From contig CAXBME010000006.1 of NCBI GenBank assembly GCA_963976765.1, forward strand, positions 62,001 to 126,000: a stretch of 64,000 nt of DNA, written 5' to 3'. The notes beneath the pieces were generated by a model, which did not search any database, was not told the DNA's origin, and saw only the letters and a list, made by a program, of their open reading frames with translations. Made by a program: the position numbers and the translations under genes. How positions within the stretch are numbered: position 1 is the first letter of the stretch; every line of letters starts with the position of its first letter. This document shows, piece by piece, positions 10,750 to 62,176 of the stretch. The DNA is from an uncultured Planctomycetaceae bacterium (GTDB lineage Bacteria; Planctomycetota; Planctomycetia; Planctomycetales; Planctomycetaceae).

Positions 10750-10814
10750 GCAGGGTGGGCACCGCCCACCGCGATATGCATTCTTCTAAAACTGGCAGGC
10801 AGTGCCCACCTTAC
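10750..10814. repeat. REP-like inverted pair (GTAG-type GGTGGGCAC..GCCCACC family)
   Basis: GCAGGGTGGGCACCGCCCACC (10750-10770) and inverted GGCAGGCAGTGCCCACCTTAC (10794-10814), between the fabZ-like gene and fabF. Confidence 0.8.
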
Positions 10815-22726: not shown

Positions 22727-22804
22727 GTGTGCCACTGGCGCTGCCTGTGCTGCCACAAGCAACCCCACAACCCAAATCAGGCACTGGCAGAGCCAGTGGC
22801 ACAC
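22727..22804. repeat. REPIN-like inverted pair (GTGCCACTGGC family), intergenic
   Basis: GTGTGCCACTGGCGCTGCCTGTGC (22727-50) and GCACTGGCAGAGCCAGTGGCACAC (22781-804); 22/24 complementary; each arm is itself palindromic. Confidence 0.9.
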
Positions 22805-47327: not shown

Positions 47328-49073
47328 TTATTCGCTCTTACGATCGCCATCAGTCGGTCGTCGACGACGGCGACGGCGTGGAGGCCGCTGACCGCCTTCG
47401 TCACCGTCACTGCTGCTGCGCGAGTCGCTGCTGCTTGAAGAACCGCTGCCGCCACGCGAAGAGCTGCCGCTTCGGCTGGAACCGCCACGTGGCGAACCGC
47501 TGCGACTCTGGCTGGCACCTCGAATATTCGCTTCCACAATCGACGACATCGCCTGTTCCCAGGTCGGGACATCATCCCAGTTGTTTGTCGCACGCCGTGA
47601 TCGAACGGGGCGATCATCCTCGTCCTCATCGTCCGTGTCGTCGTCGTCTGAATCGTCGGTGTCGTCCGCCTCGACTTCGTCCGAGTCATCTTCGATGTCG
47701 TCTTCCACTTTCGCGCGAGGCTTACGGCTACGACGACGGCGACGGCGACGCGGTCGTGTTTCTTCCTCATCATCGTCGTCTGAATCGTCGTCATCCGCCG
47801 ACTCGGCTACAGCATCGTCGTCGTCACCTTCGTCGTCGTCATCAAGGTCCGAATCTTCCGCCACTTCGACTCGCGGCTTTCGGCCCCGTCGACGTCGGCG
47901 TTTTCGACGCGGTCGTTCTTCTTCAGATTCATCTTCGGCATCACTGGACTCATCAGCGGCGTCTTCGTCCGCTTCACCGTCTTCGTCAGAATCGATTTCT
48001 GCACCAAACTCGTCGCCAGTCGGTTTGCGACTACGGCGACGACGACGTCGTCGTCGTTTGGGGCGTTCCGACACTTCTTCATCCGAGTCTGCGTCCGCGT
48101 CAGTGTTGTCTGTATCTTCCGCTCCGAAATCGTCGGCCTCGTCGTCATCATCAGAACGATCGACGGACTCTTCGTCGACAGGTTTTCGACGACGGCGGCG
48201 ACGGCGACGGCGACGTTTGGGTTTTTCGTCCCCCTCTTCGTCATCGTCATCGCGATCTGCTGTCACAACAGCTTTTTCAGCGGCATCGTCAGTGGCCTTT
48301 GCGGCGACTTCGTCGTCCTGATCATCTTCGTCGTACGCTTCGTGCTCGAAGAAGTTCTCGTCTTCATCGTCAAAGATGCCAACTCCGAAACCGAACGAAT
48401 CATCTTCCTGCGGCGGACTCGGTTTCTTCGCTTCAGGCTGGCGACGCTTCTTCGGACGATCTTCAGTCCGTTCCTTCTTCACGACCGGCGCGGCTGCTTC
48501 GAAGCTTTCGCCTTCGTCGTCGGCTTCCACTTGAGCGGTCTTCGCTGGTTGAACAGCCTTCGCTGGCCGGGACGATTCGTCATTGTCTTGCGAAGTGCTT
48601 TTCCTGTGGCTCTTCCCCCCGACGTCCCAATCGTCCAGAGGATCCCAGAACGAATCCTCGGCATCCGACTTCGGAACACTCTTGCGGGCCGGGCGAGGTT
48701 CAGCAGTTTCAGCAACCGGTGCAGGCTGTCGTGGCCGAGTCGGTGCAGACACCGGCTCGGGCGCCGCGTCTTCCTCGTCGTCATCATCTTCTTCTTCGAA
48801 AATGATGTCGTAATCGTCATCATCGTCGTCGTCACCGAAGTAGTTGTCCGAATTCACGTCATCCTCGTCGTCAGAGTCGATGGTCTCGGCAGCGACATCA
48901 GCTTCGACAGGCTCGTCCTCGACCGATGCCGAGGCAGGATCCAGCGACGAAAGATCGATCACTTCGAACGGCTCGTCATCGGAGTTCTTCTTGCCGACAT
49001 CGATTCCAAAAAGGTCCCGGGCGAGCCCTTCCCACGAGTCCGGATCATTCGGTGAATTCTGATTGGTAGTCAT
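47328..49073 (-). CDS. Low-complexity Asp/Glu- and Arg-block protein (predicted intrinsically disordered)
   Basis: 581-aa ORF co-oriented with the downstream genes; short aromatic motifs at both ends (DSWEGLARDLFG; WDDVPTWEQAM) argue this is the real frame. Confidence 0.8.
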   Translation of the reverse strand: MTTNQNSPNDPDSWEGLARDLFGIDVGKKNSDDEPFEVIDLSSLDPASASVEDEPVEADVAAETIDSDDEDDVNSDNYFGDDDDDDDYDIIFEEEDDDDEEDAAPEPVSAPTRPRQPAPVAETAEPRPARKSVPKSDAEDSFWDPLDDWDVGGKSHRKSTSQDNDESSRPAKAVQPAKTAQVEADDEGESFEAAAPVVKKERTEDRPKKRRQPEAKKPSPPQEDDSFGFGVGIFDDEDENFFEHEAYDEDDQDDEVAAKATDDAAEKAVVTADRDDDDEEGDEKPKRRRRRRRRRRKPVDEESVDRSDDDDEADDFGAEDTDNTDADADSDEEVSERPKRRRRRRRRSRKPTGDEFGAEIDSDEDGEADEDAADESSDAEDESEEERPRRKRRRRRGRKPRVEVAEDSDLDDDDEGDDDDAVAESADDDDSDDDDEEETRPRRRRRRRSRKPRAKVEDDIEDDSDEVEADDTDDSDDDDTDDEDEDDRPVRSRRATNNWDDVPTWEQAMSSIVEANIRGASQSRSGSPRGGSSRSGSSSRGGSGSSSSSDSRSSSDGDEGGQRPPRRRRRRRPTDGDRKSE

Positions 49074-50779: not shown

Positions 50780-53700
50780 TCAGGAAATTACCGGACGAAC
50801 GAAACGTTTCCGCGGGAACCTGGGTGATGGCTCATCGGCGGTGGAATCGGAATCGGGCGGCAGGTCGCGATTCTCTTCCGCCGCAAAGTGGACGTTCTGC
50901 CCGAGCAGCGTTCGAGCCAGACCGTCCCGCTGCGTCGCTCGCACGGCATCCAGAAAACTGACCTCGCCATTGATCAGTGCGGCGATCGGCTTCCCGTTGA
51001 GCAGAGCAATTCGGTTATGAGCCGTCGCCGGGACGCGAGAGTGCTTTGTAATAATGCCGACCAGATTCAACGGGTCGACTGCTGAGATGACGACCAGCTC
51101 GTCTGACGGCGACACACCGTTCGAAATCCCTTCGAGACTTTCCGGGCTGGCAACTCCCGATCTCTTGCCTGTTCCTCGAACATTCAGCGCGGGGTCGGTT
51201 TGCAGAAAGCTCTCACGAATGCCGACCGTTTTCGAAATCGTCCGGTTGCCGCGATCCGGCATCGCATCCCGCAACTGACGGAGCCTCTTCACCGTGTCGC
51301 CCAGTGCGAACTGCTCACCGGCCACGCCCGTAATAAATCGCCCGCCGCGGATCTCGCCGCGAGCTTCCAGTCGACGATAAACCTGCAGAAGCTCCCACCA
51401 CCGAGGCGTGCCGGCTTCGCGTTCCAGCAGATCGCGAAACACGACACCCCATCGACGAAGCAGTTGCCACGCCCATTGCTCGACGGAGTTCTCCTCGTCA
51501 GCGGTCGACTTCGAATCATCTGACCGCGATGCGTCAGCAGTCGCAGACGAGCGCTGCCAGATCGACCAGCGTCCGGTGCTGCCAGCCGAGTTGCGAGTTC
51601 TCGCCAGTCCGGATCGACGGCTGATTGACGGTGCCGGTTGCTTACTCTGCAACAGCGAACGCAGACCGCCGAAGCCGTCAGCCGCAATGCGGCCTCGCGA
51701 AACCAGTTCGCCCAGCGCGTCGTTCAGTTCGCCCGTCGAGACGCTCATCTGCTGCTGAAGATCTGAGGCAAAAACGGCTCCGCGCCGCTTCATCGCGTCC
51801 AGAATCTCGCGAGCGGCGGCGCTCAGAGACTCTTCATCCTCAGCTGCCGTTTCCGTGCTCAGCCATCCAAGGTCGCTCCGCAGGAACAGCGACACCGGCA
51901 CGACGCGAGTCAGCAGGGCAGGGGAGTCTGCTTCGCGCTTTGGCGGAAACAGTCGCCCCCAGGCAACTTCCCCGGACAAACAAAGTTCATCCAGCCAGGC
52001 CGATCGATAACCGTCAACACGAGCCGGAAGCACGTCACGTTCCCAGCAGACCGCCGCCAGGTCATAACCCTGCAGCAGAGACACGGCTTCAAACAAACCA
52101 TTGACGCCCGCTCGCCGAGTCTGCTTTGTCAGACCGTGATGATGCGTCAGAAATCGCAGAAACACATCCGACGACACCGGCTGAATCTGCTGCCGCAACC
52201 CCTGCATCGTCAATCGATGAATCCGCGATAACAACCGACGATGACACCACTCGGTCGCAGGCATTGGGTCTGTTCCCTGCTTATTTCCCTGGGTGCCACT
52301 GCGGGCTTGCCCAGCAGTGCTTGAACTTTGGCAGGAATCACTGCTGGGCAAGCCCGCAGTGGCACACTCACTCTGGTCTCGAAATCTGCCGCGCAGAACG
52401 ATTCCTTCGCCTTCCAGAGCTTCCAGAGCCGCAAAGGCCTGGTTTGGTCTGGTCCCCGTTCGCCGAGCGGCTTCTTCGTGAGTCAGCGGGCCTGATGTTT
52501 CCAGCAAACCTCGCATGGTCGCGACTCGGCCATCAACGTCGTTCCATTCAAGTCGTACGCCGTCGGGCGCCTGAATCTGCGGCTGCAACGCCGAGTCCGG
52601 AAACATCGCCAGCACCGCCGGAATTCGTTCCGCCGCTGTCCAGACGGTAACTCCGCCCGTTGCTGTCGTACTGGTCGCTCGACGTTGAGCAACCAGTTCT
52701 TCCAGCCAGCCCCGCCAGTCTTCCATTTCGGCGTCCGGCAACACGATCCGAGTCAGCAGCACATCGTGCAGCTCATCAGCGTTGCGAACAACGGGCGTCG
52801 CTTCGGCGGTCACCTGGTCGATCGCCAGCGGATCGAGACGCCCAAGGTCCTTCACCGAATCGACCGTCAGTGATCGCCGCGTCGAAACAGCACGAGCACG
52901 ACGTTCCGGCAACTCGCCACCGTCAAGAAACGCGTACGGGTTTGAGTTAAGCAACTCATAAGAAAACGGTGACGGCTCGCGAGTGTCCCGCGCGACGAAT
53001 TCAATCTCGCCGGCTTCCACCTGTCTCAGAACATCGACCAGACCAGCGATATCGAGAGCCTCGCTCAGGCAATCGTCCATCGTTTGCCGCAGCAGAATGT
53101 GCTCGGGCATTTCCAGCTCGCCAACGACGTTTTCCTGGCAACCGGTCAGCAACGGAAAGACGGACGACAGCAGATCGTCCGCGCGGAATCGCTGCAGCGC
53201 CGGCGGGATGCGTTTTCCTTTGTCACGGCGAGGAACCAGCAACGCCCGGTTCGCGTTCCAGCGCCAGCGGATTTGGAACATCGGAATGTAAAGGATCGCC
53301 TGTACCAGCAGTCGCTGAGCGTTCTCCGAAGTCAGCATCGGAAACATCGACTCCAGCGGAAAACTGTGTTGAGGCCCCAGCGAAAGAATGAACCCGTCGT
53401 CGTCGGCTGTCGCCTGAAGTTCAAAGTCGAACGAGACGCAGAACCGCTTCCGCATCGACAGACCCCACGCCTGCGTGATTCGCGAACCAAACGGAGCATG
53501 CACCACCATCTGCATCCCGCCAGACTCGTCGAAGAAACGTTCGAAGATCACTCGCTTCTGAGTCGGGACGATGCCGACGGCAGCAATCTGAGCCGCCAGG
53601 TAGTTCACCACCTGCCGAGCCGCGTCGTCAGAGCAGTCGGTCTCTTTGACCAGCCAGTGGACGATGTCCGCTGTCGAGTTGCGAAACTCCGTCTGCGTGG

Positions 53701-55726
53701 CCGGCATCTCGGGTTGCGAAGTCGTTGTCGCCGGTGTGCCACTGGCTTTGCCAGTGCCTGTCTGAAGTTCACTTTGTTCCGTGCTCGGCACAGGCGGAGC
53801 CTGCGGCACACTGACTGGTTCGAGATCACTCTCTTCCCACCAGCTGGCGATAACGGTTTCGGGCAGCGCCTTCAGCTTTGCTTCAAGGTCCTCACGAAGA
53901 CGCGACACTTCTTCACTGAGTTCCAGCGTTCGCCCAGGAGCTTCGCCGCGCCAGAACGGGACAGTCGGCGGAACGCCTCCCGCATCGGTGACGTGCACGT
54001 CGGTGCCGCGCACGCCTTCCATTCTCCAGGACGTATTCCCCAGCAGAATGATCTGACCGGCGTGCGACTCCAACGCGAAATCTTCGTCCAGCGTTCCAAC
54101 AACGACCCCGTCTGGCTGAGCGACGACGCGAAACTCGGCCACTTCCGGAATTGCGCCCGCGTTTGAAGCCGCGACGATCCGAGCACCCGGTCGAGTTCGC
54201 AGCCGCTTCTGAACCAAATCCTGGTGAAGGTAAACTTTTCCGCGGCCCGACCGATCGGTGAGTCCCTCGCTGAGAAACCGCAGCGTCTCGTCAAAGTCTT
54301 CCCGTTTCAGATTTCGAAACGGCCACGCGCGACGGCATAACGCAAACAGGTCGTTCGTGCCCCATTCCCGACAGGCGACTTCCGCGACAACCTGTTGAGC
54401 CAGCACGTCGATGGGACATTCAGGAATCGGAATCACATCGAGTCGACCGGCTCGAATCGCTCGAATCAGGCCCATACTTTCGACCAGTTCGTCACGAGTC
54501 AGCGCGAACAGCCGTCCTTTCGGCGTCTTGCCCAGCGAATGGCCGGACCGACCGACTCGCTGCAGAAACGTGGCGATGGCCCGCGGCGAGCCAATCTGAA
54601 TCACCAGGTCGATGAACCCGACGTCGAGGCCCAGTTCCAGCGACGCCGTGGCGACCACCGCTTTCAGTTCGCCGTTCTTCAGCTGCTGCTCGGTCTGCAA
54701 CCGGATCGCCGAAGACAGCGACCCGTGGTGACTGCCGACCTGATCCTCACCAAGGATTTCGCTGAGCTGATGCGTCACCCGCTCGGCCATTCGCCGAGTG
54801 TTCACAAAAATCAGCGTGCTGCGGTGCGAATTGATCAGCTCAACGATTCGCTCGTTAACCTCGCCCCACTGCTCGGTCGAGCAGACGGCCGACAGATCGC
54901 TCGGCGGCACTTCGATCTTCAGATCCAGGTCGCGCGAATAGCCAACGTCGACGATCTTTGGGAAGTCCGAAGATGTAGGCTGGAACAAGCTCTGCGCAGT
55001 TCCGGCATTCGAGACGGCACTTGATTCATAGTCGCCGGAACTCCGCGGAGCTTGTTCCAGCCTACGGTCACCAACCAGGAACTCCGCGATCCGCTCGATC
55101 GGTTTCTGCGTCGCCGACAAACCGATCCGCTGCAACGGCCGCTCACACAACGCTTCCAGCCGTTCGATTGTCAGCGCCAGATGTGAGCCCCGTTTGTCCC
55201 GCACCAGTGCGTGAATCTCGTCGACGATAATTGTGTCGACGGACTTCAGCGCCGCGCGGCCTTTCTCGGCGGTCAACAAAAGAAACAGCGACTCGGGAGT
55301 GGTCACCACAATGTGCGGCGGTTTGCGAACGAGGGCCGCGCGTTGAGACGGTGTTGAATCTCCCGTTCGAAGGCCGACACGCAGGCCGGCAATCGGCACG
55401 TCGGGAAACTCAGCGGCAGCCAGCGCGTTGAGTTCTTCGAGCGGCTCAGACAGGTTCCGGTGCATGTCGTTGGAAAGTGCTCGCAGTGGCGAGACGTAGA
55501 TCGCACGGACACCGTCCTCAAGCTTCCCGTCAATCGAGTCTTTCAGCAGCCGATCGATCACCGCCAGAAACGCAGTCAGTGTCTTTCCGCTGCCGGTTGG
55601 CGCGGCAATCAGCGTGTTCTCACCCTGTTCGATGTGTGGCCACCCCTGCTGCTGCGGGGCGGTGGGTTCTGCAAACCGGCTCTGAAACCAGCGCTCGATC
55701 AGCGGATGAAATCCAAAAAACGACAT
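50780..55726 (-). CDS. lhr: Lhr-family ATP-dependent helicase (full length, with C-terminal domain)
   Basis: Q-motif PTAPQ, APTGSGKT, SPLRAL, TTPES, DEIH, LSAT, HHGSL, QRVGRSGH; C-terminal LLRRWGVVFR and GEIRGGRF..GEQFA. Confidence 0.93.
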   Translation of the reverse strand: MSFFGFHPLIERWFQSRFAEPTAPQQQGWPHIEQGENTLIAAPTGSGKTLTAFLAVIDRLLKDSIDGKLEDGVRAIYVSPLRALSNDMHRNLSEPLEELNALAAAEFPDVPIAGLRVGLRTGDSTPSQRAALVRKPPHIVVTTPESLFLLLTAEKGRAALKSVDTIIVDEIHALVRDKRGSHLALTIERLEALCERPLQRIGLSATQKPIERIAEFLVGDRRLEQAPRSSGDYESSAVSNAGTAQSLFQPTSSDFPKIVDVGYSRDLDLKIEVPPSDLSAVCSTEQWGEVNERIVELINSHRSTLIFVNTRRMAERVTHQLSEILGEDQVGSHHGSLSSAIRLQTEQQLKNGELKAVVATASLELGLDVGFIDLVIQIGSPRAIATFLQRVGRSGHSLGKTPKGRLFALTRDELVESMGLIRAIRAGRLDVIPIPECPIDVLAQQVVAEVACREWGTNDLFALCRRAWPFRNLKREDFDETLRFLSEGLTDRSGRGKVYLHQDLVQKRLRTRPGARIVAASNAGAIPEVAEFRVVAQPDGVVVGTLDEDFALESHAGQIILLGNTSWRMEGVRGTDVHVTDAGGVPPTVPFWRGEAPGRTLELSEEVSRLREDLEAKLKALPETVIASWWEESDLEPVSVPQAPPVPSTEQSELQTGTGKASGTPATTTSQPEMPATQTEFRNSTADIVHWLVKETDCSDDAARQVVNYLAAQIAAVGIVPTQKRVIFERFFDESGGMQMVVHAPFGSRITQAWGLSMRKRFCVSFDFELQATADDDGFILSLGPQHSFPLESMFPMLTSENAQRLLVQAILYIPMFQIRWRWNANRALLVPRRDKGKRIPPALQRFRADDLLSSVFPLLTGCQENVVGELEMPEHILLRQTMDDCLSEALDIAGLVDVLRQVEAGEIEFVARDTREPSPFSYELLNSNPYAFLDGGELPERRARAVSTRRSLTVDSVKDLGRLDPLAIDQVTAEATPVVRNADELHDVLLTRIVLPDAEMEDWRGWLEELVAQRRATSTTATGGVTVWTAAERIPAVLAMFPDSALQPQIQAPDGVRLEWNDVDGRVATMRGLLETSGPLTHEEAARRTGTRPNQAFAALEALEGEGIVLRGRFRDQSECATAGLPSSDSCQSSSTAGQARSGTQGNKQGTDPMPATEWCHRRLLSRIHRLTMQGLRQQIQPVSSDVFLRFLTHHHGLTKQTRRAGVNGLFEAVSLLQGYDLAAVCWERDVLPARVDGYRSAWLDELCLSGEVAWGRLFPPKREADSPALLTRVVPVSLFLRSDLGWLSTETAAEDEESLSAAAREILDAMKRRGAVFASDLQQQMSVSTGELNDALGELVSRGRIAADGFGGLRSLLQSKQPAPSISRRSGLARTRNSAGSTGRWSIWQRSSATADASRSDDSKSTADEENSVEQWAWQLLRRWGVVFRDLLEREAGTPRWWELLQVYRRLEARGEIRGGRFITGVAGEQFALGDTVKRLRQLRDAMPDRGNRTISKTVGIRESFLQTDPALNVRGTGKRSGVASPESLEGISNGVSPSDELVVISAVDPLNLVGIITKHSRVPATAHNRIALLNGKPIAALINGEVSFLDAVRATQRDGLARTLLGQNVHFAAEENRDLPPDSDSTADEPSPRFPRKRFVRPVIS
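52293..52365. repeat. Perfect 27-bp inverted repeat inside lhr
   Basis: GTGCCACTGCGGGCTTGCCCAGCAGTG (52293-319), a 19-nt spacer, then its exact reverse complement (52339-365). Confidence 0.95.
53734..53811. repeat. GTGCCACTGGC-family inverted pair inside lhr
   Basis: GTGTGCCACTGGCTTTGCCAGTGCC (53734-58) and GGCACAGGCGGAGCCTGCGGCACAC (53787-811); 20/25 complementary; same 78-nt length as the intergenic copy at 22727-22804. Confidence 0.9.
54975..55065. repeat. GTAG-type REPIN-like inverted pair inside lhr
   Basis: GTAGGCTGGAACAAGCTCTGCGCAGTTCCGGC (54975-55006) and GCCGGAACTCCGCGGAGCTTGTTCCAGCCTAC (55034-65); 30/32 complementary; GTAG...CTAC termini. Confidence 0.95.
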
Positions 55727-55812
55727 CCGGTGTGGGTTTCCTCTTTGAATCGCGAATTCAGGAATTCATACGCTCCCGGATTGGGAGACCGTTGTCTAGA
55801 CTCACCGAATAA

Positions 55813-55833
55813 GTAGGTCAGGCTGGGCCTGAC
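55813..55833. repeat. Single GTAG-type REP-like palindrome
   Basis: GTAG-GTCAGGC-TGG-GCCTGAC, between the divergent lhr and argH genes. Confidence 0.65.
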
Positions 55834-61967: not shown

Positions 61968-62176
61968 AATTCGACAGGGACGATCTCGTCACGACTGGCT
62001 CAAAGACGCAGAGCCGCTAAGAAACGTGAAGAGTTGAACGGGGGGCGCAGTTTGACAGAGAAGCAGATGTTTCGATGTATTTCGGCCAAGCCGTAAAGCT
62101 CCTTGGCGACCCTCTGCTACTTTGCGCCCCAGGCTGACAGTTTCCAGGTGACTATTTTCGCAAGGGAATTTGATAA

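Follow-up and report, generated by a model that had tools for sequence, protein, structure and literature searches.

The lhr gene of an uncultured Planctomycetaceae bacterium (assembly GCA_963976765.1) encodes a long bacterial Lhr helicase and contains three palindromic repeat doublets within its reading frame. It lies on the minus strand at positions 50780..55726 of a 64,000-nt stretch of contig CAXBME010000006.1 (contig positions 62,001 to 126,000), which is referred to here as the window and whose first nucleotide is position 1. All three repeats are doublets made up of repetitive extragenic palindromes (REPs) and resembling REPINs (hairpin-forming REP doublets), and all three are inserted in frame in loops that are predicted to be disordered. 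Copies within genes are few in this genome, and lhr is a hotspot for them here and beyond, as its initial annotation had proposed. The reading that we consider probable is that lhr is a tolerant sink in which in-frame REPIN copies survive and persist.

The lhr gene and its three repeat doublets

As initially annotated, lhr is a single uninterrupted open reading frame (ORF), of 1648 aa with Pfam matches to DEAD, Helicase_C, WH_Lhr, DEAD_assoc, and WH3/WH4_Lhr. Its layout of superfamily 2 (SF2) core, winged helix, domain 4, and C-terminal winged helices, with motifs intact, places the protein in the bLhr-HTH class. The Lhr of Mycobacterium smegmatis is the best match in both sequence and fold (7LHL and 5V9X; fold, 5V9X), and NCBIfam Lhr models match with E values of 4e-205 and 1e-187, yet below their whole-protein cut-offs. 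Across the conserved core, the ratio of replacement to silent substitution rates (dN/dS) is 0.041-0.077 against six congeners, which points to purifying selection and argues that lhr is a working gene.

Element 1 (54975..55065) is a 91-nt doublet of repeat family C whose 32-nt arms (54975-55006 and 55034-55065, 94% complementary) enclose a 27-nt spacer; it occupies codons 221-250, in the linker joining the two RecA domains, and is the only one of the three to carry the GTAG tag, an unpaired tetranucleotide at one end. Element 2 (53734..53811), a 78-nt doublet of family A without this tag, has 24-nt arms, one of them decayed, and occupies codons 639-664 in the loop separating the core winged helix and DEAD_assoc matches. 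The decayed arm left it unseen by a repeat finder; with the family matrix the two arms score 42 and 26 bits, and the decayed one ranks 130 of 138. Element 3 (52291..52367), a 77-nt doublet of family B with 29-nt arms, occupies codons 1120-1145 in a linker of the C-terminal region (as an inverted repeat, its arms are 52293-52322 and 52336-52365, 30 nt and 97% complementary). Family B is related to family A at the 5' end, and the three elements, each from its own family, lack mutual self-similarity.

The arms are small hairpins in their own right, and the doublet lengths are typical of the families. Elements 1, 2, and 3 fold with z-scores against shuffled sequences of -8.0, -2.1, and -11.3 as DNA and -7.9, -4.3, and -9.5 as RNA, the RNA folding energies being -63, -44, and -63 kcal/mol. 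Each consists of two inverted REP units forming a hairpin, as in REPINs, element 2 with its decayed arm. The matrix consensus of family A starts with GTGT and that of family B with GGGT in place of GTAG, and both families are filed as REP-like. A search of Rfam gave no match.

The initial annotation had also suggested a decayed fourth inverted repeat at ~51118-51228, a suggestion that we reject: the region does not fold as a palindrome (z +0.8 as DNA and +0.4 as RNA) and has no second copy in the genome. What lies there is a lineage-specific loop of ~50 aa (51110..51260, minus strand; residues ~1489-1540) that is not palindromic in this genome. At the same site a single arm from another repeat family is present in three of six congeners (42, 42, and 30 bits), and this genome's loop has nothing of it at 10 bits or more.

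An AlphaFold2 model of Lhr residues 1-1199 (35 sequences; mean predicted local distance difference test score, pLDDT, 78) gives pLDDT values below 50 at residues 223-253, 632-673, and 1120-1154, matching the codons of the three elements, which are thus predicted to form disordered loops. Low pLDDT is also expected where an alignment is thin, yet the same spots are breaks relative to solved Lhr structures: residues 220-264 against 7LHL and 5V9X, and 1116-1157 against 7LHL.

Repeat families in the genome

The arms have further genomic copies, in line with the initial annotation: blastn finds 20, 45, and 15 loci for elements 1, 2, and 3 in the 8.57-Mb genome, the elements themselves included. Matrices for 10 repeat families, trained on extragenic copies and giving at most one match per family at 22 bits in the reversed genome, were set against 6282 uncurated gene calls from a self-trained hexamer model. 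The census comprises 470 elements, 376 of them intergenic, 65 overlapping a gene end, 20 at the edge of a coding sequence or in weak ORFs, and 9 deep in a gene. Three of these nine are the lhr elements; the other six lie in ileS, a Ser/Thr kinase gene, hpnE, the gene of a TIR-domain protein, and genes of two further proteins, a DUF1553 protein being borderline. Families A, B, and C (77, 19, and 42 elements, with 5, 2, and 1 deep in genes) are multicopy and mostly extragenic, as REPINs are, and their modal doublet lengths are 78 nt for A and 77 nt for B, with C variable at 82-91 nt. Families A and B together enter genes more often than the others (7/96 versus 2/355 elements, P 4e-4). Stop codons were considered as the cause and rejected: open frames per doublet number 4.1-4.3 versus 3.3-3.8 in four families (0.95 in family F), too small a gap.

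Within the window, two observations of the initial annotation are confirmed. The family of element 2 recurs as an intergenic 78-nt doublet at 22727..22804, and none of the 10 families lies wholly within another gene, a doublet at 10750-10814 overlapping the 5' end of a gene call. When 6.16 Mb of coding sequence was scanned for hairpins irrespective of family, 16 matches emerged, two in lhr (element 2 being sub-threshold) and four in the gene of a bacteriophage exclusion (BREX) methyltransferase, BREX-6 PglX, while a search with an arm library gave three elements in a TIR protein resembling STAND-TPR-TIR proteins. When 10-25 in-gene elements are placed at random, the probability of at least three in lhr is 6e-8 to 1e-6, and three genes with at least three elements, as observed in lhr (3), the PglX gene (4), and the STAND-TPR-TIR gene (3), arose in none of 20000 runs. 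Copies within genes are therefore strongly clumped in this genome, as well as rare.

Other host genes deserve mention in their own right. The PglX methyltransferase (G000:C27:19937-24829, locus L290, G000 denoting this genome; 1630 aa) is encoded in a BREX cluster beside brxB, and its four in-frame hairpins are of different families with 3-4 loci each. The STAND-TPR-TIR-like protein (G000:C24:31616-35557, L062; 1313 aa) likewise has three in-frame elements of different families. The essential ileS carries a family A doublet (G000:C4:240334-240401, L059) that is near-identical in the congeners G006 and G007, and inserts in the ileS of relatives reach 125 aa. An exact 18-nt start of a family C arm lies in a CHAT-NB-ARC-TIR-TPR gene (G000:C3:368631-368665, L066), and all three exact GTAG copies of this pattern in the genome are within genes. 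A double-length uvrA (G000:C13:191666-199003) encodes 2445 aa, and relatives have frames of 2200-2530 aa, some with in-frame hairpins. Single in-frame hairpins or runs of 7-base repeats occur in four further genes of G000 (C9:87226-89445, C10:100800-102839, C2:201520-203118, and C1:245016-246926), which encode ferredoxin-type, mannosyltransferase-like, anthranilate synthase I, and Roc/DUF4365 proteins. Low expression was rejected as a trait shared by host genes, with codon-bias percentiles spanning 5 to 100.

By analogy with described REPIN systems, REP-associated tyrosine transposases (RAYTs) most likely mobilise the three copies in lhr. Eight Y1_Tnp matches were found in this genome. The protein on contig C13 passes RAYT model NF047646, and family H flanks its gene; on C32, a RAYT-like gene whose score of 76 falls just under the cut-off of 80 is immediately preceded on its 5' side by one family A arm. 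No RAYT of this genome was seen next to family C, and at one of 21 loci, L484 of a congener, family C doublets stand on both sides of a Y1_Tnp gene whose product is 57.5% identical to the C13 protein. For family B there is a single weak match, of 24 bits, beside a Y1 gene in L482. A further Y1 transposase gene (G000:C2:262241-262693, L053) is flanked by clusters of a palindromic family outside the census. G000 also has several non-hairpin intergenic repeat families, along with two abundant repeats whose 15-mers occur in 94 and 64 copies and that resemble CRISPR repeats.

Turnover in the Lhr loops and excess over control genes

The protein was aligned with 19 orthologs from 22 matching relatives (lhr is split in G018 and has runs of N in G009). 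Among the 20 aligned proteins the loop lengths run from 0-8 aa to more than 100 aa; distant relatives have the three loops in short form or not at all, and close relatives have different inserts. As the initial annotation supposed, the segments are repeat insertions that orthologs lack or have replaced. Loop 1 carries family C in six of the seven genomes of the genus and is empty in G005, whose lhr has no detected hairpin. Loop 2 carries family A in G000 and G007 and another family in G003 and G006. In loop 3, G000 and G006 both have family B, with spacer and offset not the same in the two; G007 has family E, of which G001 and G004 show traces, and G003 has a third hairpin. The lhr genes of G014 and G016 have hairpin families of their own, and in G001 the sole match to the family C pattern lies in lhr. 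The peptides are unlike between families and frames and are not conserved.

The lhr of G008 (L037) contains five in-frame copies of one subfamily, one of them upstream of the conserved start region. Identity among these copies is 82-93%, versus 68-70% with the closest of 18 others; they form part of modules, 140-240 nt long with their flanks, that have been duplicated from loop to loop and repeat a Cys-rich peptide, a pattern that indicates local copying within this gene. Further attempts to place the lhr copies among their families were rejected. That they follow the dominant genomic variant is true of G006 and G007 and false of G004, where the lhr arms represent a rare variant, and spacer matches identifying an lhr copy as sister of another copy are unconvincing (5.7%, 2.3%, and 9.7% of shuffles are equally good). 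The G006/G007 spacer is found only in lhr.

In 19 relatives, hairpin or arm matches occur in 8/19 lhr genes (16 elements, 181 per Mb) versus 11/164 control genes (Fisher P 1e-4), the controls being the best 11-30 loci per search with 1.5-kb flanks, some genes partial and kin sharing events. Control matches are in uvrA (5/28), ileS (4/16), hrpA (1/10), and metH (1/19), with none in these relatives' mfd (19), recG (10), dnaE (18), dnaE2 (12), valS/leuS (13), or gltB (19). Allowing for kinship, loop 1 in five congeners may represent one insertion, leaving ~10-14 events, which is still about twice the rate in uvrA, ileS, and hrpA. Outside the genus, where genes were taken as long ORFs and the close kin L072 and L073 were dropped, matches occur at GTDB loci in 8/71 lhr genes versus 1/61 neighbours of at least 800 aa and 4/544 shorter ones, and at metagenome loci in 7/76 versus 2/36 and 2/323. 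Pooled, these give 15/147 lhr genes versus 3/97 long neighbours (P 1e-5 per kb, P 0.03 versus long neighbours), a pooling that leaves out a further planctomycete set in which no excess is apparent and other Lhr lineages are represented (1/38 lhr genes versus 0/27 long and 2/256 shorter neighbours). Two of 13 GTDB lhr hits and several threshold neighbour hits look like chance. The lhr matches come from Planctomycetota, Acidobacteriota, a gammaproteobacterium, and metagenome contigs and belong to many unrelated families; their sites are few (~195-220, 450, 640-655, 997, 1016-1028, 1067, 1115, and 1395 in the numbering of this Lhr) and include all three loops described here.

Thus lhr is the top host, followed by some nucleic-acid and defence genes, and many repair genes are spared. 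An enrichment in DNA-metabolism genes, as the initial annotation had envisaged, did not emerge, given in-gene hosts such as the kinase, hpnE, STAND-TPR-TIR, PglX, and DUF1553 genes and the repeat-free mfd, recG, dnaE, and dnaE2 of the relatives; no genome-wide class test was made. That the elements are chance palindromes, signs of a dying gene, or assembly artefacts has next to no probability: codon-shuffled lhr yields 0 hairpins in 606 kb, core dN/dS is 0.04-0.08, and inserts or sites recur in independently assembled congeners, so that the orthologs refute this explanation unless lhr is unexpressed.

The preferred account, lhr as a tolerant sink, would work as follows. The elements would be REPINs, non-autonomous inverted REP doublets copied round the chromosome, most likely by RAYTs, and nearly all copies that land in genes would be purged. 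Lhr is large and multidomain and has about nine pre-existing length-variable linkers, in which an insert of 75-95 nt that keeps the frame and brings no stop codon would, once translated, be merely a floppy extra loop. Exit would be only by an in-frame deletion sparing the flanking folds, so a copy would outlast its intergenic siblings, and each loop would over time be filled, emptied, and refilled by whichever family was active. Insertions of at least 15 aa, of any kind, number 2.17 per 1000 aa in Lhr (at nine sites), versus 1.32 for uvrA, 0.81 for ileS, 0.79 for mfd, and at most 0.49 for six others, and lhr, uvrA, and ileS are also the top genes in repeat content. That lhr has the most long insertions favours tolerance with slow loss.

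The same distribution could arise if insertion itself were biased to lhr, with a RAYT acting on the single-stranded DNA of long damage-induced genes or beside the nascent helicase in cis, and with hairpins or nearby copies seeding more. Clumping beyond chance in the lhr, PglX, and STAND-TPR-TIR genes fits this explanation, as do the real local copying in G008 and the M. smegmatis lhr, which is damage-induced according to PMC8301817. The 12 matches in neighbours of lhr also bear on it: dnaE2 or ImuB/Pol IV-like genes account for five, an rRNA methyltransferase gene for one, carboxyl transferase and ApbE genes for two, and genes of other proteins for two, the remaining two being in genes left unscanned. 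In-frame hairpins of 7-base repeats in dnaE2/ImuB-like genes beside lhr are found at L084:22601-23842, L087:18536-23526, and L308:15563-20784. Yet dnaE2 is free of repeats in 12 planctomycete genes, the three copies studied here come from three families without a clear sister by spacer, and the repeats in PglX have few copies in this genome and may have come with the gene. Upstream of lhr, a block of ~50 nt with a short palindrome (55755..55805, minus strand), kept in 7/7 genus genomes examined, is probably a promoter or operator region; no box was found in common between it and the upstream regions of recA, uvrA, uvrB, ruvB, or dinB, and an SOS box was rejected, none of the candidate patterns being shared with recA, uvrA, or dinB. 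From survivors, moreover, targeting and tolerance are inseparable. Overall we regard biased insertion as unlikely, if the strongest of the alternatives.

Several observations weigh against lhr as a purely tolerant sink. As many long insertions occur in mfd as in ileS, yet mfd has no repeat, and the long-insertion count is partly circular as a test, since many of the insertions may be decayed repeats. A second Lhr in this genome (1543 aa) is in no list of in-gene hits, and long, apparently disordered genes are absent from the hit lists as well, including the 581-aa acidic ORF at 47328-49073. The codon bias of lhr, at the 62nd percentile among 733 long genes with a crude reference set, does not suggest low expression. 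Among G000, G006, and G007, genomes whose silent sites differ by 38-45%, the element 1 arms are identical but for 1-2 of 64 nt: 0 silent changes are seen versus 6-7 expected from the core (P ~1e-4 to 7e-4). They are among the best-kept family C arms here (2-7 mismatches to four RAYT-flanking arms versus a median of 8-9), and in six congeners two-sided changes are seen at 6/32 arm pairs. Drift would be expected of a neutral loop, and the conserved arms weigh against pure neutrality.

Local recombination was rejected as the source of this identity, silent divergence being ordinary on both flanks of element 1 (13-27 of ~60 codons). Template switching at imperfect palindromes can yield two-sided arm changes without selection. 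For those changes relatedness and template switching can suffice, and the arm conservation itself could stem from hairpin selection, conversion by other copies, re-insertion at the same site, or template switching, each sufficient alone.

Selection of the hairpins as cis-regulators is accordingly one candidate. A stem of 60 kcal/mol in the mRNA or displaced strand would slow the ribosome or polymerase and keep Lhr low until helicases, possibly Lhr itself, opened it under stress. The silent-site conservation and two-sided changes in element 1, the RNA folding energies, and the recurrence of unrelated hairpins at the same loops are consistent with such a role, and precedents are the stress-reversible stalling at 3'-end REPs in Escherichia coli cited in 10.1101/2024.07.17.603846 and the attraction of inteins by archaeal members of the Lhr family (PMC8301817). 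Conversely, 132/147 distant and 37/38 other planctomycete lhr genes have no detectable hairpin, G005 does without element 1, element 2 is decaying, stalling as published requires the REP to lie no more than 15 nt from the stop codon rather than in mid-gene, and gene conversion or re-insertion can also conserve arms. We judge cis-regulation unlikely, a shade less credible than biased insertion. A wider variant is less probable still: lhr and a few nucleic-acid-handling or defence genes would be a cross-phylum landing site, where selection would actively retain mid-gene hairpins as a brake, stress-released or self-sensing, on a helicase able to unwind RNA:DNA hybrids. The choice of REP family would then be immaterial, the hairpin and not the peptide being the selected trait. 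If true, REPINs would benefit their host inside coding sequence, a parallel to the intein bias for repair ATPases.

The inserted peptides might alternatively have been domesticated as new protein modules, given that the element 1 peptide is near-identical in three congeners and similar in three more and that G008 has its Cys-rich peptide five times. Against this, the same loop holds different families with unrelated peptides, the spacer codons vary freely (most pairs have replacement-site differences, pN, of 0.2-0.6), conservation is as good at silent as at replacement sites, and pLDDT is low; domestication therefore seems very improbable.

Two neighbouring features complete the picture of the locus. 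A single intergenic REP of family F lies at 55813..55833 (plus strand) between lhr and argH. The ORF at 47328-49073 is Asp/Glu-rich with repeated Arg runs and no repeat element inside, and presumably resembles the disordered part of RNase E/G-type proteins.

Relation to known repeat systems

REPIN persistence and in-frame copies in repair genes are questions that a 2013 survey only speculated on. The empty, filled, and refilled lhr alleles that exist naturally in close relatives would make tolerance, targeting, and hairpin selection separable by allele swaps. More practically, mobile DNA repeatedly adds 25-125 residues to a conserved enzyme, and such loops will mislead annotation and alignment.

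Insertions of this kind are already known, and lhr is an unusually strong case. In that survey, Di Nocera et al. 2013 (PMC3733652) described intragenic GTAG/CGTC REPs, both singles and in-frame dimers coding for 20-30 aa, with double insertions of different families in one gene (hrpA, uvrA, and DNA ligase of O. terrae), a preference for repair and RNA-binding proteins (ileS and an N-6 methylase among them), and GTAG families in planctomycetes. The lhr elements are likewise in-frame doublets, of different families within one gene; they differ in that families A and B lack the GTAG tag, and the sections of PMC3733652 covered contain no comparison with controls per kb and no turnover of families in one loop. 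The term 'lhr' is absent from its four text supplements, although the 876-aa DEAD/DEAH entry Oter_3781 could be an Lhr core. The part of PMC3184786 covered mentions in-gene repeats, not lhr, and no paper on repeats in lhr was found in the open-licence PMC and bioRxiv literature.

REPIN-RAYT systems (Bertels and Rainey 2011, PMC3116915) consist of inverted REP doublets with characteristic spacing that form hairpins, and of RAYT genes flanked by repeats. RAYTs act on single-stranded DNA (10.1101/2024.07.17.603846). The elements described here share the doublet layout, the hairpin folding, and, for family C in a congener, a RAYT gene flanked by repeats; unlike the extragenic copies of PMC3116915, where the word 'intragenic' does not occur, they lie in a reading frame.

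The initial annotation had taken Rickettsia palindromic elements (RPEs) as the nearest precedent, and the intragenic REP doublets in repair genes (PMC3733652) are closer. RPEs, too, are palindromic repeats in frame within working genes (Ogata et al. 2000, via the review PMC10969869). As described, they measure ~150 bp, nearly half lie in genes, their hosts are unrelated, and their peptide is conserved, whereas the elements here measure 77-91 bp, ~2% lie deep in genes (9/470), they are clumped in a few genes, and their peptide varies.

Lhr itself offers a further parallel in the inteins of its archaeal members. PMC8301817, which also covers the Lhr classes and RNA:DNA unwinding, describes what are likewise selfish in-frame inserts, gained independently in the same helicase family; inteins, however, sit in the RecA domains and are spliced out, whereas the lhr repeats sit in linkers and stay. 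Beside these systems, the novelty lies in three points: unrelated families have used a few Lhr loops recurrently, as measured here; copies clump in three genes of this genome; and one hairpin is conserved at silent sites.

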